DNA from: an uncultured Chitinophagales bacterium
Lineage (GTDB): Bacteria; Bacteroidota; Ignavibacteria; UBA10030; UBA6906
Reading direction: 5' to 3'
DNA: 64,000 nucleotides
NCBI GenBank assembly: GCA_964538485.1
Contig: CAZIHJ010000001.1
Coordinates: 13,899 to 77,898 of the forward strand
Shown here: positions 15,019 to 57,003 of the stretch, piece by piece
Position numbering within the stretch: the stretch's first letter is position 1
Layout of the letters: every line of letters begins with the position of its first letter
Made by a program: the position numbers and the translations under genes
Notes under the pieces: model-generated
Databases searched by the model: none
What the model was told of the DNA's origin: nothing
The model's input: only the letters and a program-made list of their open reading frames with translations

Positions 15019-15035
15019 ATGGCACGTATCTTGAC
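15019..15035 (+). promoter_or_regulatory. Possible sigma-54-type promoter TGGCACGtatcTTGAc upstream of PLP-lyase gene
   Basis: TGGCACG is perfect at -24; -12 reads TTGA instead of TTGC. Located ~90 nt upstream of the ATG at 15125. Confidence 0.25.
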
Positions 15036-16480: not shown

Positions 16481-16511
16481 TTCAACAATCCAAGAATCAA
16501 ATAAGGTATCT

Positions 16512-17856: not shown

Positions 17857-18168
17857 ATGGCACGCGGATCGGTTCAATTTGAAATTGACACATGTAAGGG
17901 ATGTGAGCTTTGTATAGGAGCGTGTCCCCAGGGCAGCATAGAACTCTCCCCGGGGATCAACAAACAAGGGTATCATTATGCCGTCCTTATCAAGGACAAT
18001 TGTACGGGCTGCACAAACTGTGCTCTTGTTTGTCCCGATGCAGTGATTCGGGTGTATCGCGAAGAGAAAAAGAAGAGAGTTCCGGTTGCAACCATTTCCA
18101 ATGTCAAGGAAAACATTACGGTCACCATTACTGATGGTGATCGCGGAACAGTCGGTTCACAAGGGTAA
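17857..18168 (+). CDS. 2-oxoacid:ferredoxin oxidoreductase delta subunit (2x[4Fe-4S] ferredoxin)
   Basis: Trimmed to the ATG at 17857. CKGCELCIGACP and CTGCTNCALVCP motifs. Immediately precedes the alpha, beta and gamma subunit genes. Confidence 0.75.
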   Translation: MARGSVQFEIDTCKGCELCIGACPQGSIELSPGINKQGYHYAVLIKDNCTGCTNCALVCPDAVIRVYREEKKKRVPVATISNVKENITVTITDGDRGTVGSQG

Positions 18169-18185: not shown

Positions 18186-19274
18186 GTGTCCGAGCTTCGA
18201 TTAATGAAAGGAAATGAGGCACTTGCCGAGGCCGCAATCCGCGCGGGATGTCAGGCGTATTTCGGTTATCCCATCACGCCGCAGTCGGAGATTCTTGAGT
18301 ACCTGACGGACGAGGGGCGTAAACGGGGGATGGTCGTTCTTCAAGCGGAGAGCGAAGTTGCCTCGATTAACATGGTGTATGGAGCAGCTGGAGCGGGAGC
18401 CAGGACGATGACGTCGTCATCAAGTCCGGGAATCAGCTTGATGCAGGAAGGTCTCTCGTATATCGCCTGTGCCGAGCTGCCCTGCCTTGTGGTCAATGTC
18501 AATCGCGGAGGTCCAGGCCTTGGGACAATTCAACCTTCGCAGGGTGATTACTTCCAGTCCACTAAAGGAGGCGGTCACGGGGATTACCGCCTGATCGTCC
18601 TTGCGCCGGCAAGCGTTCAGGAGATGGCGGACTTTGTCTATGATGCGTTTGATCTTGCAGACAAGTACCGGACTCCAGTGTTGATTCTCGCTGATGGTGC
18701 ACTGGGACAGATGATGGAGAAGGTGGAGTTCAAGGAATACAATCCGGCGGAACATATCCCGTCAAAACCATGGGCAACGGTTGGCAAGCCCAAGTCACGT
18801 GAGCGCAATATCATCACGTCGCTTCATATTCAGCCTGAAAAAATGGAGCAAATGAATATCCAGCTCCAGGCGAAGTACAAGGAGATCTCGGAACAAGAGG
18901 TCCGCTTTGAGGAGATTCAGACCGAGGATGCCGACTGTTTCATCGTCGCTTACGGGTTGGCTGCGCGGATCGCACATCGCGCAGTGGAGCAGGCACGCGA
19001 ATTGGGTATTCGTGTCGGATTGTTGCGACCGATAACGCTGTGGCCGTTCCCCCAAGCAAAGATCCGCGAACTTGCGGACAAGACCCACGGGGTGTTGGTG
19101 GTCGAAATGAATGCAGGACAAATGGTGGAAGACGTCCGACTCAGCGTTGAAGGAAGAGTGCCGGTCCGGTTTTGCGGAAGAATGGGTGGTGTTGTACCAT
19201 CGGCCGAGGAGATTGTGGCTGCTCTTGAAGCGTTGGACTATGAAGTCGCCAAGGATCATATCGGAGAATACTGA
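18186..19274 (+). CDS. 2-oxoacid:ferredoxin oxidoreductase alpha subunit
   Basis: GNEALAEAAIRAGCQAYFGYPITPQSEI is the POR/KOR alpha N-terminal signature. Start is GTG at 18186 (GGGG RBS) or ATG at 18204. Confidence 0.85.
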   Translation: MSELRLMKGNEALAEAAIRAGCQAYFGYPITPQSEILEYLTDEGRKRGMVVLQAESEVASINMVYGAAGAGARTMTSSSSPGISLMQEGLSYIACAELPCLVVNVNRGGPGLGTIQPSQGDYFQSTKGGGHGDYRLIVLAPASVQEMADFVYDAFDLADKYRTPVLILADGALGQMMEKVEFKEYNPAEHIPSKPWATVGKPKSRERNIITSLHIQPEKMEQMNIQLQAKYKEISEQEVRFEEIQTEDADCFIVAYGLAARIAHRAVEQARELGIRVGLLRPITLWPFPQAKIRELADKTHGVLVVEMNAGQMVEDVRLSVEGRVPVRFCGRMGGVVPSAEEIVAALEALDYEVAKDHIGEY

Positions 19275-19275
19275 C

Positions 19276-20052
19276 ATGGACGCACATGCTTCACAGAATA
19301 TCAATGAGACATTGGAGTGTGTATATGAACGACCGGACACACTCACCGATACGAGGATGCACTATTGCCCCGGATGTGGTCATGGTTCTGCTCATCGACT
19401 GCTGATGGAGGTTGTTGATGAGTTGGGCATTCAGGAGCAGACGATTGGCGTTGCACCTGTTGGATGTTCAGTATTTGCCTATCAGTACATGAACATTGAT
19501 ATGCAGGAAGCAGCACATGGAAGGGCGTCAGCCGTGGCAACCGGCATCAAACGCATTCATCCTGACAAGTACGTGTTCTCATATCAGGGAGATGGTGACC
19601 TCGCCGCAATCGGTACTGCAGAGACCATTCATACTGCAAACCGCGGCGAAAACATCCTTGTCGTGTTTATCAACAACGGTATTTATGGCATGACCGGTGG
19701 TCAGATGGCCCCCACAACATTGCTCGGAATGAAGACGACGACAAGTCCAGCCGGCCGTACTACTGATACGGCGGGTTTTCCGCTCAAGATCAGCGATATG
19801 ATCGCAATGTTGCCCGGTGTGTACTACGTGAGCAGGCATTCTGTGCACACACCGAATGCTGTCCGGCAGTTAAAGAAAGCGCTTACGAAGTCGTTCCAAT
19901 TTCAAAAGGAGAAGAAGGGAACATGCTTCATAGAAGTTGTCTCCAATTGTCCCTCCGGTTGGAAGATGACCCCTCCGCAGGCAAACAAATGGATGGAGGA
20001 GAATATGTTCCCGATGTATCCCCCGGGCGAATTGAAAGCGCCCAAGCCATGA
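19276..20052 (+). CDS. 2-oxoacid:ferredoxin oxidoreductase beta subunit (TPP-binding)
   Basis: Trimmed to the ATG at 19276, which lies 1 nt after the alpha-subunit stop. HYCPGCGHG and GDGD...IFINNGIYGMTGGQ form a TPP-binding motif. Confidence 0.85.
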   Translation: MDAHASQNINETLECVYERPDTLTDTRMHYCPGCGHGSAHRLLMEVVDELGIQEQTIGVAPVGCSVFAYQYMNIDMQEAAHGRASAVATGIKRIHPDKYVFSYQGDGDLAAIGTAETIHTANRGENILVVFINNGIYGMTGGQMAPTTLLGMKTTTSPAGRTTDTAGFPLKISDMIAMLPGVYYVSRHSVHTPNAVRQLKKALTKSFQFQKEKKGTCFIEVVSNCPSGWKMTPPQANKWMEENMFPMYPPGELKAPKP

Positions 20053-20128: not shown

Positions 20129-20680
20129 ATGACACACGAACTACTTGTTGCGGGCTTTGGTGGACAAGGCGTTCTCTCCATGGGGATGACGCTTGCGTAT
20201 GCCAGCATGATTGAGAAAAAGGAAGTCAGTTGGATGCCTTCGTACGGTCCGGAGATGCGGGGCGGAACAGCGAACTGTATCGTGATTGTCTCCGATAGAC
20301 AGATCAGTTCCCCGATTGTTACGACCTTCGATACGGTCGTTGCGCTCAACCAACCATCATTGGAGAAGTTCGAAAAAGCTGTCAAACCGGGCGGGTTGCT
20401 CGTGTATGATTCCACAAACTGTATCGCCCCACCGCGCAGAACTGATATCGACATTCTTCCTCTTGCAGCGAGTGAAGAGGCGGCCAAATTGAATAATGCC
20501 CGGATCATGAACATGATTGTCCTTGGAGCGTTCATCGCACAGACTGGCGTTGTGGAAATTGCATCGTTGATGCATGCCTTGGAAAAAGTCCTGCCGGAAC
20601 GCTATCACAATCTCCTGCCATTGAACGAACGAGCGCTGCGCCGCGGAATGGAACTGGCGACACATGTCGAGGCCATCTAG
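20129..20680 (+). CDS. 2-oxoacid:ferredoxin oxidoreductase gamma subunit
   Basis: [19 protein letters not shown]...[11 protein letters not shown] is the POR/KOR gamma signature. Confidence 0.85.
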
Positions 20681-20721: not shown

Positions 20722-20970
20722 ATGGAGGTTCAATGTATGCACACATGTCAGGGTCACTGCAATGCTCTCAAGGTTGCCGAGCAGATTGAGTTATCCGCAA
20801 TTGAGGGATACAGCCGCTACCTCACGGAGTGCAACTATCCCGACGTGAGAGTGATATTGCAGGATATGATCGACCGGCATCAGAAAACCCTTCAGTTTCT
20901 GCAAGGGAAGAAAAACGAGCTGACCGAAAAACTGAATATCCTCGACAACATCAATGACAGTTTTAGCTGA
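20722..20970 (+). CDS. Small hypothetical protein (possibly ferritin-like four-helix)
   Basis: ORF only; 82 aa; E/H-rich helical pattern. Weak. Confidence 0.35.
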   Translation: MEVQCMHTCQGHCNALKVAEQIELSAIEGYSRYLTECNYPDVRVILQDMIDRHQKTLQFLQGKKNELTEKLNILDNINDSFS

Positions 20971-20989
20971 AACGGCCTGGAGACAACGT

Positions 20990-21241
20990 ATGGCACATCA
21001 GGGCAATGATGTCGTGAATTGGAACGAGGTCTCAATTGAAGAGATCCTTGCGCTGGCAATCGCCGATGAGGAATACGCGCGTGACTACTACAAACACGCC
21101 GCTGATCTCGCCGGCAGCTTGCATACGCGACAAATGCTATTGCAGCTTTCTGAAATGGAACAGGGACATGCCGACCAGTTGCGAAAAGAGCTTGACGAGC
21201 TTTCCCTGCAACGTGAGATGGAAGCTGGAATGGCGGATTAG
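20990..21241 (+). CDS. Small ferritin-like/rubrerythrin-like diiron-motif protein
   Basis: EEYARDYYKHAA and EMEQGHADQL resemble paired E-x2-H diiron-carboxylate motifs. Trimmed to the ATG at 20990. Confidence 0.4.
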   Translation: MAHQGNDVVNWNEVSIEEILALAIADEEYARDYYKHAADLAGSLHTRQMLLQLSEMEQGHADQLRKELDELSLQREMEAGMAD

Positions 21242-21295
21242 GACGGAGTGGATTCACACCTATTAAGTCCTATGCAGTTCACAAGGAGGTCCACC

Positions 21296-21886
21296 ATGAC
21301 GAAATACATTGAACAACTTTCAAAGCTCGCTTTCTTGACATTGACGGGGGTCATCGGGAGCGTTGTTGTGGGATTGATGGTGTATGGCAATGAGGTGTTT
21401 GGCATGACGCACATCGGCTTTTCATTTGTTTCATTCGGTTTGAGTGGCGCTTTCATCTTTGCTTTTTACCACGTTCGAGGTCTTTCGGAGACCATCACTG
21501 CTGCCGTGGTGACCAGTGCCTTGCAATTTGCCGTTGCCTCATCATGGATCACGCCACTTAACGCAGCGATCTGGTCCTTTGGAGTGAACCTGCCGCTCAT
21601 TCTTGTTGCGCTCATTTTCGAACGGAAACTCTCCCCGTTCAGGCAATATAAGTTCATTGTCGTGGCATTGCTGTACGGAGTGATGTTTGTGCTGTTGACG
21701 CTGTTTGTCTCATTGTTGAGTGGTATGCAGTTGCTTCCAGCAACGGTGTTCCGACAAAACTTCGTGGATGGAGGGTTGATCGGATTGGGGCTCGCGCTCG
21801 GGATTGAAGCGGGAGAAGCGTTGATCCATTCGCTTGAGCATCACCATTCCTTGAAGCATCACGGCCATATTGAGAAGCACGCGTAA
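21296..21886 (+). CDS. Integral membrane protein (5-6 TM helices), unknown function
   Basis: Trimmed to the ATG at 21296, preceded by a perfect AGGAGG RBS. Hydrophobic helices throughout and a His-rich C-terminus (HSLEHHHSLKHHGH). Confidence 0.55.
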   Translation: MTKYIEQLSKLAFLTLTGVIGSVVVGLMVYGNEVFGMTHIGFSFVSFGLSGAFIFAFYHVRGLSETITAAVVTSALQFAVASSWITPLNAAIWSFGVNLPLILVALIFERKLSPFRQYKFIVVALLYGVMFVLLTLFVSLLSGMQLLPATVFRQNFVDGGLIGLGLALGIEAGEALIHSLEHHHSLKHHGHIEKHA

Positions 21887-22026: not shown

Positions 22027-23151
22027 ATGAGCAAATATACTATTGCCTGGTTGCCCGGCGACGGAATAGGCAATGACGTAATGGAAGCTGCACGGATTGT
22101 ACTTGATGCAGTGCACCTTGACGCAGACTACGTTCACGGCGACATCGGATGGGAATTCTGGTGTCGTGAAGGCGATGCTTTTCCCCGGCGTACCATCGAT
22201 CTTCTCCACCATGTCGATGCAGCGATGTTTGGTGCGATTACCTCCAAACCGGTCAAATCAGCTGAAACAGAACTGGCACCTGCACTCCAGGGCAAGGGCC
22301 TTGTGTACCGGTCGCCCATTGTTCGCATGCGCCAATTGTTCGATCTCTATACGTGCCTTCGTCCGTGTAAAGCGTATCCCGGCAATCCCTTGAATTTCAA
22401 AGAAGGCATCGACCTTACGGTATTCAGAGAGAACACTGAAGACCTCTATGCCGGCGTGGAGTTTAGTCCTGTTCCTGTTGAGTTATCCAGTCTGCTGACG
22501 AGTATCTCCAAACCGTTTGAAGCGTTCAAGAATCTATCGGGCGACGAGTATACGGTGTCCTGCAAAATCAACACCAGGAAGGGTTCCGAGCGAATTGTCC
22601 GGGCTGCATTCGAGTTTGCACGCAAGAACGATCGAAAGAAGGTCACTGTGGTACACAAAGCCAACGTCGTCCGCGCAACTGATGGCATGTTCCTTGACGA
22701 AGCAAAGAAAGTCTCGCGGGAATTCCCCGAAATTGTGATGGACGATGCCAATGTTGACGCCATCTGCATGTGGTTGCTGAAGAACCCTCTCAGCTATGAT
22801 GTCCTTGTTGCGCCGAATCTGTACGGAGACATCATCTCCGACCTCGCGGCGCAGATGGTCGGTGGGCTGGGCTTTGGCTGCTCGGGCAACATCGGCAAGA
22901 GGCTTGCGGTATTTGAACCGTCCCATGGATCCGCGCCGAAGTATGCAGGACAAAATAAAGTGAATCCCATTGCCACCATATTGGCGGCAAAGATGATGAT
23001 GGAGTGGCTCGGAGAAACAGAGAAGGCCGAGCGCGTTGAGCGTGCAACGGCCTCCGTGATCAAGGCGGGCAGAGTGCGGACCTACGATATGGGTGGGCAC
23101 AATACCACGCGCGAAATGGCGGAAGAAATCACGAGACATCTGACCGACTAG
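22027..23151 (+). CDS. leuB: Isopropylmalate/isocitrate/homoisocitrate dehydrogenase family (beta-decarboxylating dehydrogenase)
   Basis: LPGDGIGNDV, NLYGDIISDLAAQMVGGLG and FEPSHGSAPKYAGQNKVNP are family signatures. Substrate assignment is uncertain given the genomic context. Confidence 0.85.
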   Translation: MSKYTIAWLPGDGIGNDVMEAARIVLDAVHLDADYVHGDIGWEFWCREGDAFPRRTIDLLHHVDAAMFGAITSKPVKSAETELAPALQGKGLVYRSPIVRMRQLFDLYTCLRPCKAYPGNPLNFKEGIDLTVFRENTEDLYAGVEFSPVPVELSSLLTSISKPFEAFKNLSGDEYTVSCKINTRKGSERIVRAAFEFARKNDRKKVTVVHKANVVRATDGMFLDEAKKVSREFPEIVMDDANVDAICMWLLKNPLSYDVLVAPNLYGDIISDLAAQMVGGLGFGCSGNIGKRLAVFEPSHGSAPKYAGQNKVNPIATILAAKMMMEWLGETEKAERVERATASVIKAGRVRTYDMGGHNTTREMAEEITRHLTD

Positions 23152-24081
23152 GTGGAGACAACGATGAATGATATCATCATACACGAAGTTGGTTTGCGGG
23201 ATGGTCTGCAGATGGAGAAGCAAATCGTTCCTATGGCGCAAAAAGCGAAATGGGTCGAGCAGCTCATCGATGCGGGAGTGGATATCATTCAGCTTGGCTC
23301 GTTTGTTCATCCCGAGAAAGTCCCGCAGATGGCTGATACCGATGGACTGTTTCAGTATTTCACCAACATTGAACGACCGTCCGGCGTGATGTTCTCAGGT
23401 CTCGTCCTCAACGAGAAGGGATTTGATCGAGGTCTTGCGTGTGGAGTTGAGATGTTTTGCCTGGGTGTGTCCGCGAGTGAAACCCACAGCCGGAAGAACA
23501 CCGGCATGTCGGTGAATGAGGCAACCGATCGGATCATTGCAATTGCACTACGGGCTATTGAAGCCGGGAGAACAGTACAGGTGTCGGTGCAATCGGCATT
23601 TGGATGCGGGTACGAAGGCCACGTTCCACAGGAACGGGTGATGAGGATTGTTGAACGCTACTTGAATGCCGGACTGCGGAATATCAGTCTCGCCGATACT
23701 GCAGGTCATGCCACGCCGGACCAGGTGGAGAGAATGTTTGCATCAGTCATGGAATGCGACGAAGGCGTTCAATACGCCTGTCACTTTCATAACACATATG
23801 GGCTTGGACTCGCAAACGCATATGCAGCGATGAAGACGGGAGTGAAGTATTTTGAATCATCGGTCGGTGGGCTCGGTGGTTGCCCATTCACGAAGATCGC
23901 CGGAGGCAACGTCTGTACTGAAGATCTCGTACATATGCTGCAACGGATGGAACGCCGACACGATATAACATTGGAGGGTCTCATCGAGGTTGCAAAAGAC
24001 ATGAATGTGTTTTTCGATCGCGAGTTGCCGGGGACGATTTACAAGACCGGAAAGATCGTTGAGAATCACACTGTACAGTAA
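23152..24081 (+). CDS. HMG-CoA lyase-like (HMGL family) short lyase/synthase; lacks LeuA/CimA C-terminal domain
   Basis: IHEVGLRDGLQ (compare the HMGL signature EVGPRDGLQ), the TIM-barrel metal ligands HFHNTYG and D..GH. At 309 aa it is the size of HMG-CoA or citramalyl-CoA lyases rather than the 500+ aa synthases. Confidence 0.8.
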   Translation: METTMNDIIIHEVGLRDGLQMEKQIVPMAQKAKWVEQLIDAGVDIIQLGSFVHPEKVPQMADTDGLFQYFTNIERPSGVMFSGLVLNEKGFDRGLACGVEMFCLGVSASETHSRKNTGMSVNEATDRIIAIALRAIEAGRTVQVSVQSAFGCGYEGHVPQERVMRIVERYLNAGLRNISLADTAGHATPDQVERMFASVMECDEGVQYACHFHNTYGLGLANAYAAMKTGVKYFESSVGGLGGCPFTKIAGGNVCTEDLVHMLQRMERRHDITLEGLIEVAKDMNVFFDRELPGTIYKTGKIVENHTVQ

Positions 24082-24100
24082 TTGATCCGGAGGGTGAGAT

Positions 24101-24568
24101 ATGCATTGTAGCTGTGGAAGTCCGGTAAATCACTTGGATGATTTTTGTCCGCATTGCGGTGCACTGCTTCTGGAAGAAGTTCACTGCAGCAGACATTCCC
24201 CGGAGAAAGCCCTTGGTGTGTGCATTATTTGTTCCAAACCCTTTTGTGCGACTTGTGGCGGATGGTTAGGCGGTCTCTTCTTGTGCAATGAACATCGTGG
24301 ATATGAAGTCATTGAAGGAATGGCAAAAGTATTCGGGGGAAGTGACGGTGCACAGGTTGAGCATGCAAAGAATTGTTTGGAGAAAAGCGATTTACATCCT
24401 TTCTTTTTTTCTCGAAAAGCGACCCCTGGTCCCGACCACGCATTGTTCAGAGAGCTCGATGGTCACATCGTCGACGAGTACAAGGTCATGGTTCCGTGCA
24501 ATGAAGTGATGAAGGCGGAGGATGTGTTGAAGAAATTGGACCTGGTCGAAATGGACAAAACAAGTTGA
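24101..24568 (+). CDS. Zinc-ribbon hypothetical protein
   Basis: CSCGSPVNHLDDFCPHCG ... CIICSKPFCATCGGW...C give two C4-type clusters. C-terminal region of unknown function. Confidence 0.45.
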   Translation: MHCSCGSPVNHLDDFCPHCGALLLEEVHCSRHSPEKALGVCIICSKPFCATCGGWLGGLFLCNEHRGYEVIEGMAKVFGGSDGAQVEHAKNCLEKSDLHPFFFSRKATPGPDHALFRELDGHIVDEYKVMVPCNEVMKAEDVLKKLDLVEMDKTS

Positions 24569-24585
24569 AGCGCCGAGGAGAAATT

Positions 24586-25785
24586 GTGACACAAGCACTG
24601 CTCTCAGGCATTCGTGTTCTTGATCTGACGAATGTTCTCTCGGGACCGTTTGCAACACTTCATCTCTCGTTGCTGGGAGCCGAGGTCATCAAGATCGAGA
24701 ATCCTGTCGATGGTGACCTTGCGCGCAAGCTTGGCAGCGTTCCCGAGTTAAACGACCAACTCATGGGAACGAGTTTCCTCGCCCAGAACGCGAATAAGAA
24801 ATCGCTCACACTGAATCTCAAAGAGACGGAAGCAAAAAAAATATTTCTGAAGCTTGTCAAAACAGCCGACATTGTGGTCGAAAACTTTCGTCCCGATGTT
24901 ATGAACCGCCTTGGGCTCGGGTATGATGTACTCAGGAAGAATAATACGGCGCTTATCTACTGTGGCATCTCCGGCTTCGGTGCCACGGGACCGGATGCAA
25001 TGAAACCCGCGTACGATCAGATCATCCAGGGACTCAGTGGTGTCATGGCCATCAACGGCGATGAGAGCTTGAATCCGCTGCGTTGCGGGTTCCCAGTGTG
25101 TGATACCGTCGGAGGATTGAACGCTGCGTTTGCCATCATGGCTGCCTTGTTCCATCGCGAACGGACAGGGGAGGGGCAGTTCATTGATGTGGCGCTTCTT
25201 GATTCCGTAATGCCGCTCATGGGTTGGGTGGCGGCAAACCTTCTCATCGGTCACCAGCAGCCGGTACTGATGGGAAATGACAACTTCACTGCCGCACCAT
25301 CGGGGATGTTCGTCACGAAGGACGGCCATATCAACATTGCCGCCAATAAGCAGGAGCAATGGGAAGCCGTTGCGGACGTACTTGGTGTTCCCGGGCTCAC
25401 ACAGGACCCTCGCTTTGAAAAGCGTGATGCGCGTAAAAGAAACCGGAAGGTTCTTACGTTATTGTTGGAGGAAAAATTGAAAGAGAGGGAGACAGCATAC
25501 TGGGTGGAAACACTCAATGCAAAGGGCGTTCCTTCGGGTGAGATTCTTGGTCTTGAAGCCGCACTGGACCAGCAGCAGGTGAAGCATCGCGATGCAATTC
25601 AGTCTGTTCATGCCGACGGTATCGGGGATCTCAAGTTGTTCAATTTGACTGCAAAGTTTGAGAAGACTCCGGGGAACGTAACATGTGCTCCGCCGAAGCT
25701 CGGTGCGCATACAAACGAATTCCTTCGCGAATTGGGTTATTCCAATGTGGAGATAGAGCAGCTTCGTGAGCGAAGGGTTGTGTAG
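24586..25785 (+). CDS. CoA-transferase family III (CaiB/BaiF/Frc-type)
   Basis: LSGIRVLDLTNVLSGPFATLHLSLLGAEVIKIE is the family-III N-terminal signature. The start is probably GTG at 24586 (AGGAG 7 nt upstream); the ORF track uses TTG at 24565. Confidence 0.85.
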   Translation: MTQALLSGIRVLDLTNVLSGPFATLHLSLLGAEVIKIENPVDGDLARKLGSVPELNDQLMGTSFLAQNANKKSLTLNLKETEAKKIFLKLVKTADIVVENFRPDVMNRLGLGYDVLRKNNTALIYCGISGFGATGPDAMKPAYDQIIQGLSGVMAINGDESLNPLRCGFPVCDTVGGLNAAFAIMAALFHRERTGEGQFIDVALLDSVMPLMGWVAANLLIGHQQPVLMGNDNFTAAPSGMFVTKDGHINIAANKQEQWEAVADVLGVPGLTQDPRFEKRDARKRNRKVLTLLLEEKLKERETAYWVETLNAKGVPSGEILGLEAALDQQQVKHRDAIQSVHADGIGDLKLFNLTAKFEKTPGNVTCAPPKLGAHTNEFLRELGYSNVEIEQLRERRVV

Positions 25786-25796
25786 CATATCAGCGA

Positions 25797-27095
25797 GTGT
25801 GTGCAATGGGTATGACAATAGTTGAAAAGATTCTGGCCCGCGCGTCAGGGTACAAAGCGGTGAAAGCCGGTGATGTGGTGGAGCCGTCAGTCGATCTCGC
25901 AATGTCGCATGAGAACGCGGCACTGGTGATCAATCAGTTTCTCGAAATCTTTGAAGGTACTGGTGTCACACCGGAGGTGTGGAGTTCGCCAAGGGTTGCA
26001 ATCATCTTTGATCATCGCGTTCCGGCGGAATCAGCGAAGACCGCGACGAACCAGAAAAAGGTCCGGGAGTTTGTAGCGAAACACATGATCAATAAATTCC
26101 ATGACATTCGGGGTGATCGCGGTGGAATTTGTCACCAGATTCTCCCTGAAAGCGGCTACGTTCGTCCCGGCTCAGTGGTTGTGGGTACGGATTCACATAC
26201 GACCAGCCATGGCGCTCTTGGCGCGTTTGCCTTTGGGATCGGGGCAACCGAGATGGCGAGTGTCTGGGCGCTCGGTACGGTCCTCAACGTGGAAGTGCCC
26301 GAGACGATCAAGGTGAATGTGCACGGGAGTTTCCCCCCCTTCGTCGGGCCTAAAGATTTGATTCTCCACCTCATCGGCAAGATCAGTGCGCAGGGGGCGA
26401 ATTTCAGGGTCATTGAGTTCCATGGCGACACAATCCGGGCAATGTCCACTTCGGGGCGTTTGGTTCTCTGCAATATGTCTGTCGAAGCTGGCGCAACATC
26501 CGGCATCGTTCCTGCCGATGAAGAATCGATCCGATACCTCAGGGACGAAGCCGGCGTAAACGATCCGCTGACCCCGGTTTTGCCCGACAATAATGCGACA
26601 TACATCCAGGAGATCGATATTGATGTGTCGAATCTCGGACCACAGGTTGCCTGTCCGCACACGGTTGATAATGTCAAATCCGTTGAGAGTGTCATGGGAA
26701 CATCTGTCCACCAGATCGTCATCGGGTCGTGCACAAACGGCAGATTGGATGACCTTCAGGTAGCCGCAGAGATTATCAGAGGAAAGAAGGTTTCGAAGAA
26801 CACCCGTATGCTTGTTTTTCCGGCAAGCGGCAAGATCTATGGTGAGGCGCTTGAGCGAGGGTACATCATGGACTTCATGAAGGCCGGAGCCGTGGTGATG
26901 AACCCGGGGTGTGGGCCGTGTCTCGGCATACATGAAGGTGCGTTGGCCGACGGTGAGGTTGCCCTCTCGACGACAAACAGAAATTTCAAAGGACGGATGG
27001 GAAACCCGAAATCTGAAGTATATCTCTGCTCACCTGCCGTTGCCGCGGCATCAGCCATTACCGGGATGATCACCGATCCGCGGAAAGGGGGATAA
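25797..27095 (+). CDS. leuC: Aconitase-family hydro-lyase large subunit (archaeal-type LeuC/HACN-like, ~430 aa)
   Basis: Fe-S ligand Cys region CTNGRLDD...NPGCGPCLG, and the substrate-loop region GSRTDSHT-like (VVGTDSHTTSHGAL). Confidence 0.85.
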   Translation: MCAMGMTIVEKILARASGYKAVKAGDVVEPSVDLAMSHENAALVINQFLEIFEGTGVTPEVWSSPRVAIIFDHRVPAESAKTATNQKKVREFVAKHMINKFHDIRGDRGGICHQILPESGYVRPGSVVVGTDSHTTSHGALGAFAFGIGATEMASVWALGTVLNVEVPETIKVNVHGSFPPFVGPKDLILHLIGKISAQGANFRVIEFHGDTIRAMSTSGRLVLCNMSVEAGATSGIVPADEESIRYLRDEAGVNDPLTPVLPDNNATYIQEIDIDVSNLGPQVACPHTVDNVKSVESVMGTSVHQIVIGSCTNGRLDDLQVAAEIIRGKKVSKNTRMLVFPASGKIYGEALERGYIMDFMKAGAVVMNPGCGPCLGIHEGALADGEVALSTTNRNFKGRMGNPKSEVYLCSPAVAAASAITGMITDPRKGG

Positions 27096-27099
27096 TGAT

Positions 27100-27618
27100 A
27101 TGGCAAAGGTAGTCCTGGCTGTTGGCGACGATATCTCCACCGATGTTATCTATCCGGGCAGGTTCATGGCAACAGTTCTTCCCGCTGAAACACCACAGTT
27201 CGCATTTGCGGACAATACCGGGTTCAACGCGAAGTTGAAATCGAAACAAATTGCTGGCGGGAGTATCATTGTGGCAGGGAGGAATTTTGGATGCGGTTCG
27301 TCACGCGAACAAGCCGTCTCCACTCTCAAAGGTCATGATCTGGTGATCGTTGCAAAGAGCTTTGCGCGCATTTTCTTGCAGAATTCCGTGAACCTTGGAT
27401 TGCAGTTGGTTGAAGCGCCGGAAATCGAAGCGTCTGAAAATGACGAATTGGATATCGACGCGGACATTGTTGAAAACAAGACGACAGGAAAACGGTTCAA
27501 CATCATTGCTTTCCCGAAGACCCGACAAGAGATCATTGCTTCAGGTGGATTAATACCCCATACGAGAAAGTTGATCATGGAGAGGCGGAGGGGAGTTTCT
27601 CAACGGAAAAATGCTTAA
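27100..27618 (+). CDS. leuD: Aconitase-family hydro-lyase small subunit (archaeal-type LeuD-like)
   Basis: GDDISTDVIYPGRF...IVAGRNFGCGSSREQA is the LeuD swivel-domain signature. Lies 4 nt after leuC. Confidence 0.85.
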   Translation: MAKVVLAVGDDISTDVIYPGRFMATVLPAETPQFAFADNTGFNAKLKSKQIAGGSIIVAGRNFGCGSSREQAVSTLKGHDLVIVAKSFARIFLQNSVNLGLQLVEAPEIEASENDELDIDADIVENKTTGKRFNIIAFPKTRQEIIASGGLIPHTRKLIMERRRGVSQRKNA

Positions 27619-27646: not shown

Positions 27647-28141
27647 GTGAGAAGAGACATGGAATCCATTGAACAACCCAAAGTGAGACATCGATCATTT
27701 TCCTACACGACAAATCTCTCCTGGGCGGAAGGCAGAATCGGGACGATGACATCCGAGGGGAAGCCGACTCTCAAGATATCAAGTCCGCCGGAGTTCAAAG
27801 GCAACGCCGGCTATTGGACGCCGGAGGATGTTTTTGTCGGCTCTGTAGAGATGTGTCAGATGCTCACATTTATTGGAATTGCCCAGAAACAAAATGTTCC
27901 GTTCGTATCATACAAGAGTTCTGCCAAGGGTACACTGGAGTTTATTGACGGACAGTACCGGTTTACGCATATCGTTATTACTCCGGTAGTAGTGGTGGAC
28001 GAGCCGGGGACAGAGTCTCAAATCAACGCAGTCCTTCGTGAAGCCCACAAGAAATGCCTTATCGCAAACTCTATTACGGCAATTGTGGAGGTCAACCCTA
28101 CGATCCAGTTGAAAGAGAGAATCGCCGGTGAAGTTATCTGA
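27647..28141 (+). CDS. OsmC/Ohr family peroxiredoxin-like protein
   Basis: PEDVFVGSVEMCQMLTFIGIA...KKCLIANSI carries the two conserved Cys of OsmC. An alternative ATG lies at 27659. Confidence 0.75.
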   Translation: MRRDMESIEQPKVRHRSFSYTTNLSWAEGRIGTMTSEGKPTLKISSPPEFKGNAGYWTPEDVFVGSVEMCQMLTFIGIAQKQNVPFVSYKSSAKGTLEFIDGQYRFTHIVITPVVVVDEPGTESQINAVLREAHKKCLIANSITAIVEVNPTIQLKERIAGEVI

Positions 28142-28314
28142 TGTGTGTGGTGCCACCGTTCAAAGTTAAGAAAACGGCGCGCGACCCATTCTCACATCTG
28201 AAAATCCGATTCACCCGTGGATCAACGGGCGTTATTCCTTCCCAAATTTAACAAATCGATGTGCATTGATTTGGCACCCCCTTTGTCACCTGAGTCAGCA
28301 ACAGGAGGGATTCC

Positions 28315-29709
28315 ATGATGTTTTCTTCGCCGTTGAAAGTAGATGTCGGTCTGCTCAGTAAGTATGATCGTCCCGGACCGCGATACACCAGTTATCCGAC
28401 TGCCCCGATGTTTACGAGTGCATTTACCCCAGACGACTATCGGCGTGCCATAGTCGAGTCAAACCCGGCAACGGCAAACTCTGATATCTCACTCTATTTT
28501 CATTTCCCCTTTTGTGACACATTATGCTATTTCTGCGGTTGCACCATGATGGTAACGCGCGACCGCAAGAGGATCTCAGAATATCTCCAGTACGTGAAAA
28601 AGGAAATCGATATTGTTGCTCCGCTGATTGCGGACAAGAGGAAGGTGATGCAGGTGCATTGGGGGGGTGGGACCCCCACGCACCTGACGCCAGAAGAGAT
28701 ACTCGACATGGCAGGGTACATTCGGCGCTCCTTCAATATCGCTCCCGACGCCGAAATGAGTGTCGAGATTGACCCGCGTGAGTTGACGCAGAAACACCTT
28801 GGCGCACTACGACATGTTGGGTTTAACAGGGTGAGCATGGGGATTCAGGACTTCAACCCTCGCGTGCAGCATGCCGTCAATCGTGTGCAGCCGGAGGAGT
28901 TGTCATTGCAAGTCTACAAGTGGGCAACCGCGCTTGAGTTCGAAAGCATCAACGTGGACCTGATCTACGGACTTCCGTTGCAGACCATGAGCACGTTTCG
29001 GGATACGTTGCAGAAAGTCATCCGCTTGCGCCCCGATCGGATTGCAGTCTTTAATTATGCCCACGTTCCCTGGATGAAGGCCCACCAACGTTTGATCCAT
29101 GCAGAGGACCTTCCGAGCGCGGACGACAAACTCAATATTCTGAAAATGACAATTGAGATGCTCTGCTCTGACGGCTACGAGTATATCGGGATGGATCATT
29201 TTGCACGACCAAATGATGAGCTCACTGTGGCTCAACGGGAGAAGACGCTCAACCGGAATTTTCAGGGCTACTCGACAAAATCCGGTGCGGACCTGTACGG
29301 ATTTGGCATGTCATCCATCGGTAATATTCATGGCGTGTACGCTCAGAACGCCAAGACGCTGCCTGAGTACTACAAGGCCCTTGATCAAGGTACGCCGGCA
29401 ACGTACGTAGGATACCGGATGACGAATGATGATCACATCAGGAAGCATGTCATCGCGCGTCTCATGTGTGATCTTGAACTGAAAAAGTCCGATGTGGAGA
29501 AACTGTTCAGCATCGACTTTGATGAGTACTTCGAGGAGGCGTTGGAACAACTGGAGACATTTGTGGATGACGATCTTGTGGAGCACACACTGAACGGGAT
29601 ACGGATCATCGGCAACGGGCGGCTTGTTCTTCGCAACATCGCCATGTGCTTCGATGCGTACCTTGATACGATGCAGAAAGAGAAACCGGTGTTCTCGCGG
29701 ACTGTGTGA
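28315..29709 (+). CDS. hemN: Oxygen-independent coproporphyrinogen III oxidase (radical SAM, HemN)
   Basis: Radical-SAM CDTLCYFCGC, the PRYTSYPTA N-terminal motif, and the HemN C-terminal domain. Confidence 0.9.
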   Translation: MMFSSPLKVDVGLLSKYDRPGPRYTSYPTAPMFTSAFTPDDYRRAIVESNPATANSDISLYFHFPFCDTLCYFCGCTMMVTRDRKRISEYLQYVKKEIDIVAPLIADKRKVMQVHWGGGTPTHLTPEEILDMAGYIRRSFNIAPDAEMSVEIDPRELTQKHLGALRHVGFNRVSMGIQDFNPRVQHAVNRVQPEELSLQVYKWATALEFESINVDLIYGLPLQTMSTFRDTLQKVIRLRPDRIAVFNYAHVPWMKAHQRLIHAEDLPSADDKLNILKMTIEMLCSDGYEYIGMDHFARPNDELTVAQREKTLNRNFQGYSTKSGADLYGFGMSSIGNIHGVYAQNAKTLPEYYKALDQGTPATYVGYRMTNDDHIRKHVIARLMCDLELKKSDVEKLFSIDFDEYFEEALEQLETFVDDDLVEHTLNGIRIIGNGRLVLRNIAMCFDAYLDTMQKEKPVFSRTV

Positions 29710-29935: not shown

Positions 29936-32338
29936 TTGTTCCACCACTTTCGTATTGGAGACTGTTTGCTCTCATATGTGCAAGAAAAAAGCTGCGGTGA
30001 GTTTGATATAGACCAGGAATGCGGGACGAAGAGGAAGAAGATCAATGTTGCGGGAATTGTCGCTCTGTGTATTCTGGCGACAACGTATGCTTCTCCCGTT
30101 GAAGCACAGGTGACGTTGGCTGGTCAGGTGGTTGATGAAGAGACGCACCAACCGATTGAGAATGTGAGTGTTCTGCTCCTGGAAACAGGGCGCCGGAAAT
30201 ACACGAATACACAAGGACGCTTCGCGTTCGAGAATCTTGCCGCCGGCCAGTACGCAGTAGCAGTGCATCACATTGGCTACGCCGACGTTGAGTGTATGGT
30301 CGTCGTTCGGGAGAAGATCGACAGCATCATTATCCTCCTGCGCTCCTCCATCAACCAATCCGCTGAAGTACTCGTCCGGGGAACGCGTGCACTTTCATCA
30401 TTGAAAAAGTCCTCCTTTCCCATCGATGTTTTAATGAGTGATCGCCTTACTCAGCACTCCCCAACATCAGTCTCTGATGCGCTCAAGAATATTCCGGGGC
30501 TTTCCCTCGTCCGTGACGGCGTTTGGGCCACAACGGTTTCCATCCGCGGGATGGGCCGTTCAAATATCGTTACTCTCGTGGACAACACCAGAATCGAAAC
30601 TTCCAATGATATTGCGGGCGGACTCTCGCTGCTCAATGTTCAGGATATTGAGAGAGTGGAGACGATGAAATCTCCCGGATCGGTCCTTTTTGGATCCGGA
30701 GCCCTTGGAGGTGCGGTTCATGTGATGATGAAACGGCCGTCGTTCAGCGACCAGCCCGGAATGGCCGTCGAAGTATCCGGGGGGTTCACGAGTGTCGATA
30801 ACGGGCTCTCCCAATATCTTGCCATTGAGTCCTCGACTGATCAATACGCCGTCAGACTGAGTGGAGGATATCGACGAGCCGGGAACACCATGACGCCTGA
30901 TGGGATGCTTCTGAATTCACAGTATCGTGATTTCAGTCTGTCAGATGCGCTGGCTGTAAAGACACTTGGTGAACAATCGCTGCTTCTGAACTACCAGCGG
31001 TCGCAAGCCGAGGACACCGGTCTTCCCGGTGGATCGCCAATTTCACCAACAGCGAACGCCAGGTACACACTCGCACGACGTGAACGATTCGGGTTGGAGT
31101 ATATCCTGCCGAATATGTCGCCGGGGACTCCGCTTCTCACGTTCAGACTTTCCCGACAGACGATTACCCGTAATGTTGAGATCATTCAGAATCCGGTGTT
31201 GACTATAACACCGCATGCGGTACATACCACCATATCCGGCCAGATTGAATCCCAAGTTCTCCCCGACGTCAATGACCGCCTCACGGTCGGCATTGAGCTC
31301 TGGCGCAGGGAACTGGATAGCCAGCGTGAGAGAATCGATCGGAGCAACGGTCAAATCACAGGTGAGCGCCCTGTGCCGTTGTCCACCAATCTTAATGCGG
31401 GAGTGTATGCGCAGAACGAATGGCGTAGCTCCTCCGACAACATGGTGATAATGTTGGGAGCTCGCTATGATCGAGCCCGTGTCGCCAATGATGAGACAAT
31501 GAATCCCGCCTATGTTGTTGCCGGTGGAATTCTGCAGACCGCACCGTCCGACCAGAAACTGTTGTGGAAGAAATCAACCGCACACGATGAGTCGTGGAGC
31601 ATGAATGCCGGCCTCCAGTACGCCGTCAGTCCATTGGTTGATGCATCGCTGCTGGTCGCAACGGCATTCCGGTCGCCTTCACTCGAAGAGCGCTTTCAGT
31701 TCATTGATCTCGGGAACACCGTTCGCATCGGAGATCCAACCCTGCAACCTGAACGAAGCCTCTGCATCAACACCGGAGTGGGCTTGCACACGCAAGCCCT
31801 GAAAATCCGCACAGACATGTTCTGGACCCGGCTCTCGAATCTCATCACAGAAATTCCCGGAGTATACGAGGGTCGACCGGCGTACGTGAAAACGAATATT
31901 GGAACAGCCAGTGTGTACGGGTGTGAGATCTCGACCGAACTCGCTCTGACAACATATATTGTTTTGAAGTCGTCGGCTGCCTACGTGCGGGGCCGCGACA
32001 CTCGTAATCATACTGATCTTCCGCAGATTCCACCCATGAACGGCCGTGTGGAAGTTAACGGCCACTTCGAGTCTCTGGGAAATCTGCATATCGCGTGGTC
32101 GGGCGCGGTGACGCAGAATAGTCTTGCTCCTGCCGAGCAGCGCACACCGGGCTATGCGGTTATAGATGTGGATATCGCGAGTAGGCCGCTGACGATCGGA
32201 CCATTGTCGCTCATCGTCCGATCCGGGATACAGAATGTTTTCAATCGGGCGTACAGGAATCATCTCTCCACCCTTCGAGATGTCATCAAGTCCGAGCCGG
32301 GTAGGAATTTCTTTTTGTGTGCGAAGGTCGTCCTATGA
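29936..32338 (+). CDS. TonB-dependent outer-membrane receptor with N-terminal carboxypeptidase-regulatory-like domain
   Basis: A CarbopepD_reg-like beta-sandwich (VTLAGQVVDEETHQPIENVSVLLLETGRRKYTNTQGRFAF), a plug region (PGLSLVRDG...IRGMG), and a long barrel with a C-terminal aromatic-rich strand. The exact start is uncertain: the open frame has no internal ATG before the signal peptide. Confidence 0.8.
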   Translation: MFHHFRIGDCLLSYVQEKSCGEFDIDQECGTKRKKINVAGIVALCILATTYASPVEAQVTLAGQVVDEETHQPIENVSVLLLETGRRKYTNTQGRFAFENLAAGQYAVAVHHIGYADVECMVVVREKIDSIIILLRSSINQSAEVLVRGTRALSSLKKSSFPIDVLMSDRLTQHSPTSVSDALKNIPGLSLVRDGVWATTVSIRGMGRSNIVTLVDNTRIETSNDIAGGLSLLNVQDIERVETMKSPGSVLFGSGALGGAVHVMMKRPSFSDQPGMAVEVSGGFTSVDNGLSQYLAIESSTDQYAVRLSGGYRRAGNTMTPDGMLLNSQYRDFSLSDALAVKTLGEQSLLLNYQRSQAEDTGLPGGSPISPTANARYTLARRERFGLEYILPNMSPGTPLLTFRLSRQTITRNVEIIQNPVLTITPHAVHTTISGQIESQVLPDVNDRLTVGIELWRRELDSQRERIDRSNGQITGERPVPLSTNLNAGVYAQNEWRSSSDNMVIMLGARYDRARVANDETMNPAYVVAGGILQTAPSDQKLLWKKSTAHDESWSMNAGLQYAVSPLVDASLLVATAFRSPSLEERFQFIDLGNTVRIGDPTLQPERSLCINTGVGLHTQALKIRTDMFWTRLSNLITEIPGVYEGRPAYVKTNIGTASVYGCEISTELALTTYIVLKSSAAYVRGRDTRNHTDLPQIPPMNGRVEVNGHFESLGNLHIAWSGAVTQNSLAPAEQRTPGYAVIDVDIASRPLTIGPLSLIVRSGIQNVFNRAYRNHLSTLRDVIKSEPGRNFFLCAKVVL

Positions 32339-36951: not shown

Positions 36952-36960
36952 AGGACACAA

Positions 36961-56991: not shown

Positions 56992-57003
56992 GGTAGTTCT
57001 CCT

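Follow-up and report, generated by a model that had tools for sequence, protein, structure and literature searches.

A conserved five-gene operon in uncultured bacteria that may encode a thioester-conserving citramalate pathway

Introduction

To our knowledge, all known routes of 2-oxoacid chain elongation, whether they lead to leucine, to citramalate and isoleucine, to homocitrate and lysine or to coenzyme B, begin with an irreversible synthase that hydrolyses a thioester. Can such a route do without this enzyme? The question is raised by a gene cluster on the + strand (22027–27618) of a 64,000-nt stretch of DNA, hereafter the window, from an uncultured Chitinophagales bacterium (GenBank assembly GCA_964538485.1, contig CAZIHJ010000001.1, positions 13,899 to 77,898). 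An earlier note on this DNA, made from the sequence alone, had pointed to a short HMGL-family lyase and a family-III CoA-transferase lying among leuB-, leuC- and leuD-like genes, and had suggested a CoA-ester-conserving pathway variant. In this operon a lyase and a CoA-transferase appear to take the place of the synthase; the thioester would thereby be conserved and the whole sequence become reversible, much as the tricarboxylic acid (TCA) cycle does through CoA-dependent citrate cleavage.

Dozens of uncultured species, and possibly hundreds, carry the operon; they come from groundwater, soils and sediments. Annotation pipelines label its parts 'HMG-CoA lyase' (3-hydroxy-3-methylglutaryl-CoA lyase), 'CoA transferase' and 'LeuB/C/D', and reconstructions from metagenome-assembled genomes (MAGs) may in this way mis-assign leucine biosynthesis or ketone-body metabolism. 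If its reductive direction is real, the operon would represent a new natural CO2-incorporating route. We found no published description of the five-gene operon in the full-text literature beyond a review (PMC8307300) in which the enzyme pair EC 4.1.3.46/2.8.3.20 appears as a hypothetical way of reaching (R)-citramalate indirectly. A Bacteroidetes/Chlorobi MAG has been described in which leuB, leuC and leuD are present and leuA and the Val/Ile pathways are missing (PMC6338057); this is the pattern in which the module would appear to an annotation pipeline, and the genes in question may possibly be the same.

Results

Gene content and conservation of the operon

The locus comprises six tightly packed open reading frames (ORFs), all on the + strand and all where the earlier note had placed them. 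A dehydrogenase gene (22027–23151, 374 aa; Pfam Iso_dh, 3e-88) is followed by a lyase gene (23152–24081, 309-aa ORF; Pfam HMGL-like, 6e-43, as its sole domain), a zinc-ribbon/B-box-like ORF (24101–24568, 155 aa), a family-III CoA-transferase gene (24565–25785, 406-aa ORF; Pfam CoA_transf_3, 2e-117) and the genes for the large subunit (25797–27095, 432 aa; Pfam Aconitase, 9e-98) and small subunit (27100–27618, 172 aa; Pfam Aconitase_C, 3e-13) of an isomerase of the archaeal LeuC/LeuD type. Families were called with Pfam and with NCBIfam and its cut-offs, and structural relatives were taken from the PDB. Since the homologue consensus begins MNxIIIHEVG and the called homologues measure 305 and 399 aa, ATG 23164 is the probable start codon of the lyase gene (giving 305 aa) and GTG 24586 that of the transferase gene (399 aa). 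A look-up of the window lyase by exact sequence gave no record.

Relatives were sought in one genome per GTDB species, which yielded 548 candidates; being pattern matches, these are an upper estimate. We inspected the best 80 of the 548 (lyase identity 63–82%), all from uncultured MAGs, and probed the neighbouring genes within ±10 kb. The genomes are labelled Bacteroidota, Ignavibacteriota, Acidobacteriota (Vicinamibacteria, Terriglobia, Aminicenantes), Gemmatimonadales (Gemmatimonadota), Verrucomicrobiota, Anaerolineae/Chloroflexota and Calditrichaeota (Calditrichota), with one Chlorobiaceae bin and others. All five core genes are present in 61 of the 80 loci, and 57 have them in the order dehydrogenase–lyase–transferase–large subunit–small subunit; among the other loci, 12 are cut by contig ends, 5 internal ones hold just the lyase and transferase genes within 10 kb and 2 have no dehydrogenase nearby. 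The transferase gene follows the lyase gene in every locus that has downstream sequence. Median identities to the window proteins are 76% for the dehydrogenase, 65% for the lyase, 72% for the transferase, 75% for the large subunit and 64% for the small subunit, and metagenome contigs with a lyase identity of 70–90% show the identical five-gene arrangement. The closest genome is a Bacteroidota MAG (GCA_046160825.1), whose block proteins are 91–98% identical to those of the window. This arrangement is far beyond chance: the synteny of lyase, transferase, isomerase and dehydrogenase, which the earlier note had wanted checked, is kept across phyla and extends to a sister with a lyase of only 51% identity. 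The dehydrogenase–lyase fusions that seem to exist in GC-rich loci are long stop-to-stop frames and not fusions.

The zinc-ribbon ORF, by contrast, stands outside the conserved system. No Pfam family scores above threshold (there is a weak match to Zn_ribbon_3, E=0.004), and it is found only in the window and in one other locus, L001, from a near-conspecific of the window bacterium. The two copies are 81% identical and all indels between them are in-frame, so that the ORF is a real gene; it has no counterpart in the other ~78 loci, where the lyase gene directly adjoins the transferase gene. The gene that the earlier note had listed after the lyase thus exists, and it is an insertion specific to this lineage, not a component of the module; its confinement to the window and L001 rules it out as a pathway member.

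The lyase and the boundary of its clade

The condensing enzyme of the canonical route is a LeuA/CimA-type synthase of about 370–520 aa, in which linker subdomains and usually the LeuA_dimer regulatory domain are added to the HMGL barrel, and the most trivial explanation of the lyase would be that it is a frameshifted or truncated LeuA or CimA in a decayed leu operon. Nothing speaks for this beyond the common HMGL-like barrel. The 120 closest lyase homologues (69–91% identity) measure 290–340 aa, mostly about 305 aa, and the catalytic motifs RDG, HxH (HFH) and GGCP are kept across 83 lyase sequences. The window lyase scores 75 bits against the LeuA model (cut-off 517) and 52 bits against the CimA model (cut-off 950), and passes the cut-off of the NCBIfam HMG-CoA-lyase subfamily NF004283; its top PDB match is the B. 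subtilis HMG-CoA lyase (1ydo, 1e-59). An E. coli LeuA probe matches the lyase alone, at 28–54 bits, in the window and in each of the 80 loci, and none of these loci encodes a LeuA C-terminal region downstream of the lyase. The truncation is excluded by lengths, motifs, family scores and the missing C-terminus, and we give it practically no credence. The earlier note's description of a 309-aa HMGL lyase lacking the LeuA dimerisation domain accordingly holds, and the canonical leuA that it had feared might lie just outside is not there: neither the 64-kb window nor the ±10 kb around the lyase in the 80 loci contains a second LeuA/CimA-like ORF. A second full LeuB/C/D set is likewise missing from the window and from the 80 loci.

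Where the lyase clade ends was determined with HMMER, in an exhaustive search against 1.84 billion representatives clustered at 50% identity. Two full-length representatives mark it, one at 433 bits (66% identity) and one at 330 bits (51% identity), and beyond them lies the general HMGL pool, at no more than 251 bits and 45% identity. The 51%-identity sister is still encoded beside Iso_dh, CoA_transf_3, Aconitase and Aconitase_C genes, with unrelated genes inserted among them. A 45%-identity outgroup lyase, P0131, lies in a classical leucine-catabolism cluster (carboxyltransferase, enoyl-CoA hydratase, class-I CoA-transferase), and because of these neighbours it is a true HMG-CoA lyase. No genes of leucine catabolism or ketogenesis (methylcrotonyl-CoA carboxylase, methylglutaconyl-CoA hydratase) were found near the lyase gene in the window or in the 80 loci. 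The five-gene module thus marks off a distinct lyase clade, and from its family and its gene partners we predict the lyase to be an (R)-citramalyl-CoA (2-alkylmalyl-CoA) lyase.

Two further outgroups carry the pairing of lyase and family-III transferase in other contexts, so that the pair predates the five-gene module. L090 has a trio of transferase, lyase and IclR regulator genes (6815–9677). In L091 (8001–11756) the genes for a 369-aa HMGL protein and a family-III transferase are joined by one for a 405-aa Iso_dh protein and followed by one for a 685-aa protein without any Pfam match; an isomerase is not annotated there. These partnerships may be related hydroxy-dicarboxylate pathways.

Dehydrogenase, isomerase and transferase

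It was for the dehydrogenase that the earlier label, 'leuB' or 'LeuB-like', proved too specific. The protein reaches no NCBIfam equivalog cut-off: the best models are those for homoisocitrate dehydrogenase and archaeal isopropylmalate (IPM) dehydrogenase, the LeuB model TIGR00169 gives 197 bits against a cut-off of 353, and every isocitrate dehydrogenase (IDH) equivalog cut-off is missed. The aligned substrate helix reads R-S-P-I-V-R-M-R in the dehydrogenase, R-S113-L-N115-V-A-L-R119 in E. coli Icd and R-G-A-L-L-P-L-R in E. coli LeuB. In Icd, Asn115 binds the gamma-carboxylate of isocitrate together with Ser113; the equivalent of Ser113 is present, and the position of Asn115 is occupied by Ile in the dehydrogenases of all clade members. 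Arg85 of Thermus homoisocitrate dehydrogenase (HICDH) aligns with the Val of the dehydrogenase, whose Ile-Val pair, invariant in 66 sequences, aligns with the hydrophobic Leu-Leu pair of LeuB.

The cofactor pocket is of the other kind. The motif APKYAGQNKVNP together with TYD matches Lys344, Tyr345, Val351 and Tyr391 of E. coli Icd, and the cofactor loop reads APKYAG, as opposed to APDIAG, with its NAD-specific Asp-Ile, in LeuB. Residues of the Lys344/Tyr345 type, which in Icd bind the 2′-phosphate, are NADP determinants established by coenzyme-specificity engineering of IDH and isopropylmalate dehydrogenase (IPMDH), and the Lys-Tyr motif is kept in about 64 of the 66 clade dehydrogenases. The protein also has the Icd-type insert, which LeuB lacks. 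Judged by these residues, the dehydrogenase is a hybrid that joins an IDH-like scaffold and an NADP pocket to an IPMDH-like substrate pocket, and it is predicted to be an NADP(H)-dependent 3-alkylmalate (3-methylmalate) dehydrogenase.

The 'archaeal-type' label given earlier to the isomerase is borne out: the large subunit passes the cut-offs of NF001614 (552 bits, cut-off 385) and TIGR02086 (519 bits, cut-off 410) and the small subunit that of TIGR02087 (114.8 bits, cut-off 108.95), at the level of subfamilies, and the equivalog models for LeuC, LeuD, HacA and HacB are not reached. The top PDB match of both is the M. jannaschii isopropylmalate/citramalate isomerase (4nqy, 1.9e-119, for the large subunit; 3vba, 1.8e-28, for the small), mitochondrial aconitase matching the large subunit at merely 6e-43. 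The three Fe-S cysteine motifs of the large subunit are conserved. The specificity loop of the small subunit reads GRFMAT, as compared with ARYLVY in the M. jannaschii isomerase and GPYLRT in homoaconitase, so that the position of the homoaconitase Arg is taken by Ala; in 64 sequences the loop is invariant as YPGR[YF]MATVLP.

The best NCBIfam models of the transferase, succinate-glutarate and succinyl-CoA:mesaconate CoA-transferases, both remain below cut-off, and its top PDB match is succinate-hydroxymethylglutarate CoA-transferase (SUGCT; 9br6, 1.4e-73). A loop, GFPVCDTVGG, is conserved in 76 sequences, and its Asp is likely to be catalytic. The transferase is predicted to be an acyl-CoA:(R)-citramalate CoA-transferase; because its nearest relatives are succinyl-CoA-dependent dicarboxylate transferases, succinate is the likely CoA partner and succinyl-CoA the probable donor.

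The proposed pathway

On these grounds we propose that the five-gene operon encodes a thioester-conserving, reversible citramalate (2-alkylmalate) pathway, a reading whose chances we put at even. The lyase would interconvert acetyl-CoA plus pyruvate and (R)-citramalyl-CoA, and the transferase would exchange the CoA of (R)-citramalyl-CoA with a carboxylate, probably succinate, to give (R)-citramalate and an acyl-CoA; together the two would stand in for the synthase, CimA or LeuA, that releases CoA by hydrolysis in the canonical route. The isomerase would then interconvert (R)-citramalate, citraconate and 3-methylmalate, and the dehydrogenase 3-methylmalate plus NADP+ and 2-oxobutyrate plus CO2 and NADPH. 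Run oxidatively, the pathway would supply 2-oxobutyrate for isoleucine or propionyl-CoA; run reductively, it would turn 2-oxobutyrate, from methionine, threonine or, through a 2-oxoacid:ferredoxin oxidoreductase (OFOR), propionyl-CoA, into pyruvate and acetyl-CoA.

The combination of enzymes constrains the substrate. Only a 2-substituted malate would serve both a LeuCD-type isomerase and a beta-decarboxylating dehydrogenase, and, by the chemistry of the families, a 2-alkylmalyl-CoA formed from acetyl-CoA and a 2-oxoacid would be the sole intermediate that links an HMGL-type lyase and a CoA-transferase to an alkylmalate. The residues of the dehydrogenase and the small subunit make tricarboxylates such as citrate and homocitrate unlikely and favour a small or hydrophobic alkyl side chain; substrates of the TCA (citrate/isocitrate) and homocitrate types are excluded by Asn115 to Ile, Arg85 to Val and the loop without Arg. 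Since no thioester is hydrolysed, the overall equilibrium should lie near 1, and CO2, the NADPH/NADP+ ratio and the sinks would set the direction. Of the CoA-ester-conserving variant that the earlier note had suggested, the lyase/transferase/isomerase/dehydrogenase synteny and the absence of LeuA/CimA stand as observations, along with gene content, families, clade edge and residues; its substrates, CoA donor and direction we infer.

Gene neighbourhood and regulation

Upstream of the core on the + strand lies a block of genes that begins with a 4Fe-4S ferredoxin (14516–14785). A 451-aa Cys/Met-metabolism enzyme dependent on pyridoxal phosphate (PLP) follows (15125–16480; Pfam Cys_Met_Meta_PP, 8e-96); its best NCBIfam models are methionine gamma-lyases (MGL; 317 bits, below the 550 cut-off), and MGL-like genes lie upstream of OFOR genes in 11 loci. 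Gamma-eliminating PLP enzymes and threonine dehydratases both yield 2-oxobutyrate, and the MGL-like enzyme is possibly a 2-oxobutyrate producer. A second CoA-transferase, of the acetyl-CoA hydrolase/transferase family (16440–17846, 468-aa ORF; Pfam AcetylCoA_hydro and AcetylCoA_hyd_C), has butyryl-CoA:acetate CoA-transferase as its best NCBIfam model (308 bits, below the 675 cut-off) and may be of the propionyl-CoA:acetate type; such a gene lies immediately 5′ of the OFOR genes in 8 loci.

The OFOR itself is of the four-subunit type, with NCBIfam and Pfam matches for all four: delta (17857–18168), alpha (18186–19274), beta (19276–20052) and gamma (20129–20680). In enzymes of this type delta carries two [4Fe-4S] clusters and beta the thiamine diphosphate. 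Alpha falls into the VorB subfamily (556 bits, cut-off 399) and scores 242 bits against the 2-oxoglutarate synthase family (cut-off 579); delta, beta and gamma match generic Por/Kor/Oor models in NCBIfam, and the nearest solved structures allow no call on the substrate. We predict that the enzyme interconverts 2-oxobutyrate and propionyl-CoA. OFOR genes adjoin the core in 21 of the 80 loci, all in Bacteroidota/Ignavibacteriota, on the same strand where they are upstream of it and on the opposite strand where they are downstream, and because there are two arrangements the association is better explained by selection than by inheritance alone. Three small ORFs lie between OFOR and core on the + strand (20722–21886) and are conserved with OFOR in the same-strand arrangement: an 82-aa ORF with a weak DUF2383 match (E=0.004), a rubrerythrin/ferritin-like ORF of about 83–95 aa (20954–21241; Pfam Rubrerythrin, 4e-07) and a 212-aa membrane protein with a His-rich C-terminal tail, HSLEHHHSLKHHGHIEKHA.

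No ilv/leu biosynthesis genes flank the module in the window or the 80 loci. Probes for ilv genes across the 80 loci matched only in L026, a generic thiamine-diphosphate enzyme, and in L074, where an IlvA-like dehydratase adjoins the lyase–transferase pair. The MGL-like, IlvA-like and OFOR neighbours point to 2-oxobutyrate and propionyl-CoA and thus, in a subset of genomes, favour the methyl series. Joined as it is to OFOR, MGL-like enzyme and second CoA-transferase, the module in this bacterium and its Bacteroidota/Ignavibacteriota relatives would sit at the 2-oxobutyrate/propionyl-CoA/propionate node. Both halves of this connection have precedents: amino-acid-fermenting anaerobes convert 2-oxobutyrate from methionine or homocysteine to propionyl-CoA in a ferredoxin-dependent manner (PMC8473912), and in Haloferax mediterranei a citramalate/2-oxobutyrate pathway supplies propionyl-CoA (PMC9432822). 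The route from citramalate to 2-oxobutyrate that the earlier note had sketched thus gains some support from the alkylmalate-type residues and from these neighbours.

An OsmC-like peroxiredoxin and a radical SAM protein (HemN) resembling oxygen-independent coproporphyrinogen oxidase (27647–29709, + strand) come after the core in most Bacteroidota/Ignavibacteriota loci; a functional link of these two genes to the module is not evident. Further downstream on the + strand lies a HydABC-like hydrogenase set (33272–38790), made up of a NuoE-like 2Fe-2S protein (33272–33793), a 1053-aa NuoF-like protein fused to GltD/NADPH-type Fer4_20 and Pyr_redox_2 domains (33790–36951) and an [FeFe]-hydrogenase (36961–38790), which may form an NADP-linked enzyme of the bifurcating kind. 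With the genes for an EamA transporter and a TonB-dependent receptor (29936–33243 region), this set makes up the ~9 kb that separate the HemN gene from the gene for pyruvate:ferredoxin oxidoreductase (PFOR); in the close relative L001 the HemN and PFOR genes are adjacent. Within a few kb downstream of PFOR, on the + strand, are a phosphofructokinase (PFK; 43599–44570) and a 768-aa MaeB-type malic enzyme fused to a phosphate acetyltransferase-like (PTA) domain (45633–47939). On the − strand (54282–57726), downstream of the genes for a sigma54 two-component pair (51107–54110), two GCV_H-domain (lipoyl-carrier-like) proteins are encoded in tandem; at 237 and 240 aa they are about double the usual GcvH length, and their genes adjoin those for an NrfD-like membrane subunit and a 4Fe-4S protein. 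Multihaem c-type cytochromes are encoded at 6484–8727 (− strand) and 58090–62691 (+ strand); one of them, of 746 aa, is fused to a cytochrome b561-like membrane domain, and another is NapC/NirT-like. These cytochromes suggest a capacity for anaerobic respiration or extracellular electron transfer. With PFOR, hydrogenase, malic-enzyme/PTA fusion, PFK and multihaem cytochromes close by, we read the region as a central-carbon/redox island.

Regulation may involve sigma54. The window holds two sigma54 two-component systems, and whichever way the genes are arranged, the OFOR side is bordered by a sigma54 response regulator and a kinase. Sigma54-type motifs (TGGCAC-N5-TTGC-like) lie 60–123 bp 5′ of the dehydrogenase gene in L003, L015, L022 and L033 (Ignavibacteriaceae-type) and 5′ of the MGL/OFOR block in L001, L005 and the window (15020–15035). 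Other such motifs in the window precede the Usp gene (12024–12039), HemN (28272–28287) and PFOR (38942–38957); the window-wide count of 47 is a modest excess over the 35.8 ± 5 of shuffled sequences. Scans for sigma70 promoters and terminators performed no better than on shuffled sequence, and no riboswitch, T-box or leader RNA matched Rfam anywhere in the window.

Alternative substrates and the direction of the pathway

The same chemistry could act on a leucine-type substrate, 2-oxoisovalerate and acetyl-CoA being interconverted with 2-isopropylmalyl-CoA, 2- and 3-isopropylmalate, and finally 2-oxoisocaproate and CO2. A VorB-type OFOR would then make 2-oxoisovalerate from isobutyryl-CoA or pass 2-oxoisocaproate on to isovaleryl-CoA, and the operon would serve to make leucine without LeuA, to provide primers for iso-fatty acids or, run backwards, to cleave leucine carbon in a redox-neutral way. 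The resemblance of the Ile-Val pair to the Leu-Leu pair of LeuB, the dual isopropylmalate/citramalate specificity of the nearest isomerase relative and the VorB-named subfamily of the OFOR alpha subunit all suit such a substrate, as would leucine made from imported valine in the Bacteroidetes/Chlorobi MAG with leuB/C/D and no leuA (PMC6338057), whose genes are possibly not those of the module. However, no branched-chain aminotransferase, ilv or leucine-related gene is adjacent in the 80 loci, the recurrent neighbours (MGL-like, and IlvA-like in L074) would give 2-oxobutyrate and not branched 2-oxoacids, and the NADP-type pocket is unlike that of any canonical IPMDH, so we regard the leucine series as unlikely.

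A tricarboxylate version would turn citrate and succinyl-CoA into citryl-CoA and then acetyl-CoA and oxaloacetate, independently of ATP-citrate lyase (or run a homocitrate/2-oxoadipate series), and with a heterodimeric aconitase, an NADP-isocitrate dehydrogenase and a 2-oxoglutarate:ferredoxin oxidoreductase would form a variant (reverse) TCA branch. The gene set indeed parallels such a succession of 2-oxoglutarate oxidoreductase, isocitrate dehydrogenase, aconitase and citrate cleavage; the dehydrogenase shares the NADP motif, Ser113 and the Icd-specific insert with E. coli Icd and scores highest with profile models of homoisocitrate and isocitrate dehydrogenases, and the neighbouring OFOR weakly resembles Oor/Kor subunits. 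We nevertheless consider this version very improbable: Ile stands in place of Asn115 throughout the clade and Val in place of the HICDH Arg85, the small-subunit loop, which we take to correspond to the aconitase Arg580 segment, has no basic residue at the homoaconitase Arg position, mitochondrial aconitase is a much weaker match than the IPM/citramalate isomerase (6e-43 versus 2e-119), and the OFOR alpha subunit belongs to the VorB subfamily, far short of the 2-oxoglutarate synthase cut-off (242 against 579 bits). Finally, the cluster might house two unrelated functions, the lyase and transferase catabolising a free hydroxy-dicarboxylate (3-hydroxy-3-methylglutarate, itaconate-derived citramalate or D-malate) next to LeuB/C/D-like genes that are ordinary biosynthesis genes and adjacent by accident. 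The subfamily score of the lyase, the SUGCT likeness of the transferase and the lyase–transferase pairs that occur alone in outgroup L090 and in 5 clade loci are what one would then expect. Against it stand the identical gene order in 57 loci of many phyla and its persistence, despite insertions, in the 51% sister; the dehydrogenase gene lies upstream of the lyase gene, so that the pair is nested within the LeuB/C/D-like genes, all five proteins share similarly high cross-phylum identities (medians 64–76%), the dehydrogenase is not a canonical LeuB and no other leu/ilv biosynthesis genes are near. An accidental neighbourhood is thus quite improbable, somewhat less so than the tricarboxylate version.

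Several observations also count against the proposed citramalate pathway itself. Its residues fit a hydrophobic side chain in general and do not distinguish methyl, isopropyl or other alkyl groups. The lyase remains above the automated HMG-CoA-lyase threshold (287.6 versus 246 bits), and five internal loci have the lyase and transferase alone within 10 kb. The OFOR/MGL context is confined to 21 of the 80 loci, about one in four, and since the MGL-like enzyme and the second transferase also score below equivalog cut-offs, the link to 2-oxobutyrate is only suggestive. Two further points concern the reductive direction: by our estimate the conversion of propionate, 2 CO2 and 2 H2 to pyruvate and acetate is endergonic (about +31 kJ/mol), and we know of no physiological precedent for a reductive carboxylation of the IPMDH type.

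As to the direction of the citramalate pathway, we lean slightly towards cleavage, that is, the reductive conversion of 2-oxobutyrate, CO2 and NADPH to pyruvate and acetyl-CoA. We do so because a transferase plus a lyase is a cleavage design that low-flux biosynthesis would have little need of, because the dehydrogenase pocket is NADP-type, because the module is nowhere beside ilv/leu biosynthesis genes and because in the window it sits in a region of central carbon and redox metabolism with sigma54-type regulators. Our own estimates from textbook formation energies put the conversion of 2-oxobutyrate to 2 acetate, which is redox-neutral, at about −77 kJ/mol, that of 2-oxobutyrate to propionate, CO2 and H2 at about −54 kJ/mol and that of propionate, CO2 and H2 to 2 acetate at about −23 kJ/mol.

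In its strongest form, which we think doubtful, the module would run reductively in vivo, from propionyl-CoA to pyruvate and acetyl-CoA, and so be the methyl counterpart of the reductive branch of the TCA cycle. The OFOR would form 2-oxobutyrate from propionyl-CoA, CO2 and reduced ferredoxin, and 2-oxobutyrate, CO2 and NADPH would then yield 3-methylmalate, (R)-citramalate, citramalyl-CoA and finally pyruvate and acetyl-CoA. A synthetic CO2-fixing cycle has been designed in which the carboxylation of alpha-ketobutyrate (2-oxobutyrate) is followed by citramalyl-CoA lyase (2026 preprint, bioRxiv 10.1101/2025.11.21.689712), and the module, so operated, would be its natural counterpart. Consuming no ATP, it would also fix two CO2 for each propionyl unit and let anaerobes ferment or assimilate the carbon of propionate, threonine or methionine to acetyl units without B12-, biotin- or quinone-dependent steps; closed through the succinate–propionate pathway, it could form a new autotrophic cycle.

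Comparison with known systems

The predicted skeleton changes, from pyruvate and an acetyl unit through citramalate and 3-methylmalate to 2-oxobutyrate, are those of the canonical CimA–LeuCD–LeuB pathway of Methanocaldococcus, Geobacter and Leptospira, and the isomerase is nearest to the M. jannaschii isopropylmalate/citramalate isomerase. Unlike that pathway, the module has no synthase and no thioester hydrolysis, its dehydrogenase pocket is NADP-type and it shows no ilv/leu linkage. With the routes of Haloferax (PMC9432822) and of amino-acid-fermenting anaerobes (PMC8473912) it would share the joining of 2-oxobutyrate to propionyl-CoA by a 2-oxoacid oxidoreductase, which agrees with the succession of MGL-like enzyme, CoA-transferase, OFOR and core in the window; those routes are synthase-based and unidirectional, whereas the steps of the module are all potentially reversible. 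The reductive TCA branch with citryl-CoA synthetase and lyase, of the Hydrogenobacter type, corresponds to the module step for step if a methyl group replaces the carboxymethyl group: an acyl-CoA is carboxylated to a 2-oxoacid with ferredoxin, the 2-oxoacid to a hydroxy acid with NADPH, and isomerisation and CoA activation precede the cleavage to acetyl-CoA and a 2-oxoacid. This is an analogy only: activation and cleavage there are the work of succinyl-CoA-synthetase-like and citrate-synthase-like enzymes, as against a family-III transferase and an HMGL lyase here, and the module would use no ATP and has residues that exclude tricarboxylates. With HMG-CoA lyase (PDB 1ydo, 2cw6) the lyase shares fold, catalytic residues and about 40% identity, enough to pass the NCBIfam subfamily threshold; true HMG-CoA lyases, however, are encoded with methylcrotonyl-CoA carboxylase and methylglutaconyl-CoA hydratase genes, and members of the module clade never are.

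The nearest parallel, compared by family and by gene order, is found in Chloroflexus aurantiacus, where an HMGL lyase gene likewise stands beside a family-III transferase gene. There, Friedmann, Alber and Fuchs (in J Bacteriol, 2006 and 2007) reportedly described Ccl (EC 4.1.3.46) and Sct (EC 2.8.3.20), encoded side by side, the former said to be an (R)-citramalyl-CoA lyase of the HMGL family of about 34 kDa and the latter a family-III succinyl-CoA:(R)-citramalate CoA-transferase of about 44 kDa. Together the two are said to turn (R)-citramalate and succinyl-CoA into pyruvate and acetyl-CoA, a cleavage reportedly studied in connection with glyoxylate assimilation, and we know of no other characterised (R)-citramalyl-CoA lyase. 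LeuCD-type isomerases act on (R)-citramalate, so the stereochemistry of the Chloroflexus pair is the form that such an isomerase would use. What sets the operon described here apart is that it adds an NADP-type dehydrogenase and a LeuCD-type isomerase to the pair and that it is spread over many phyla.

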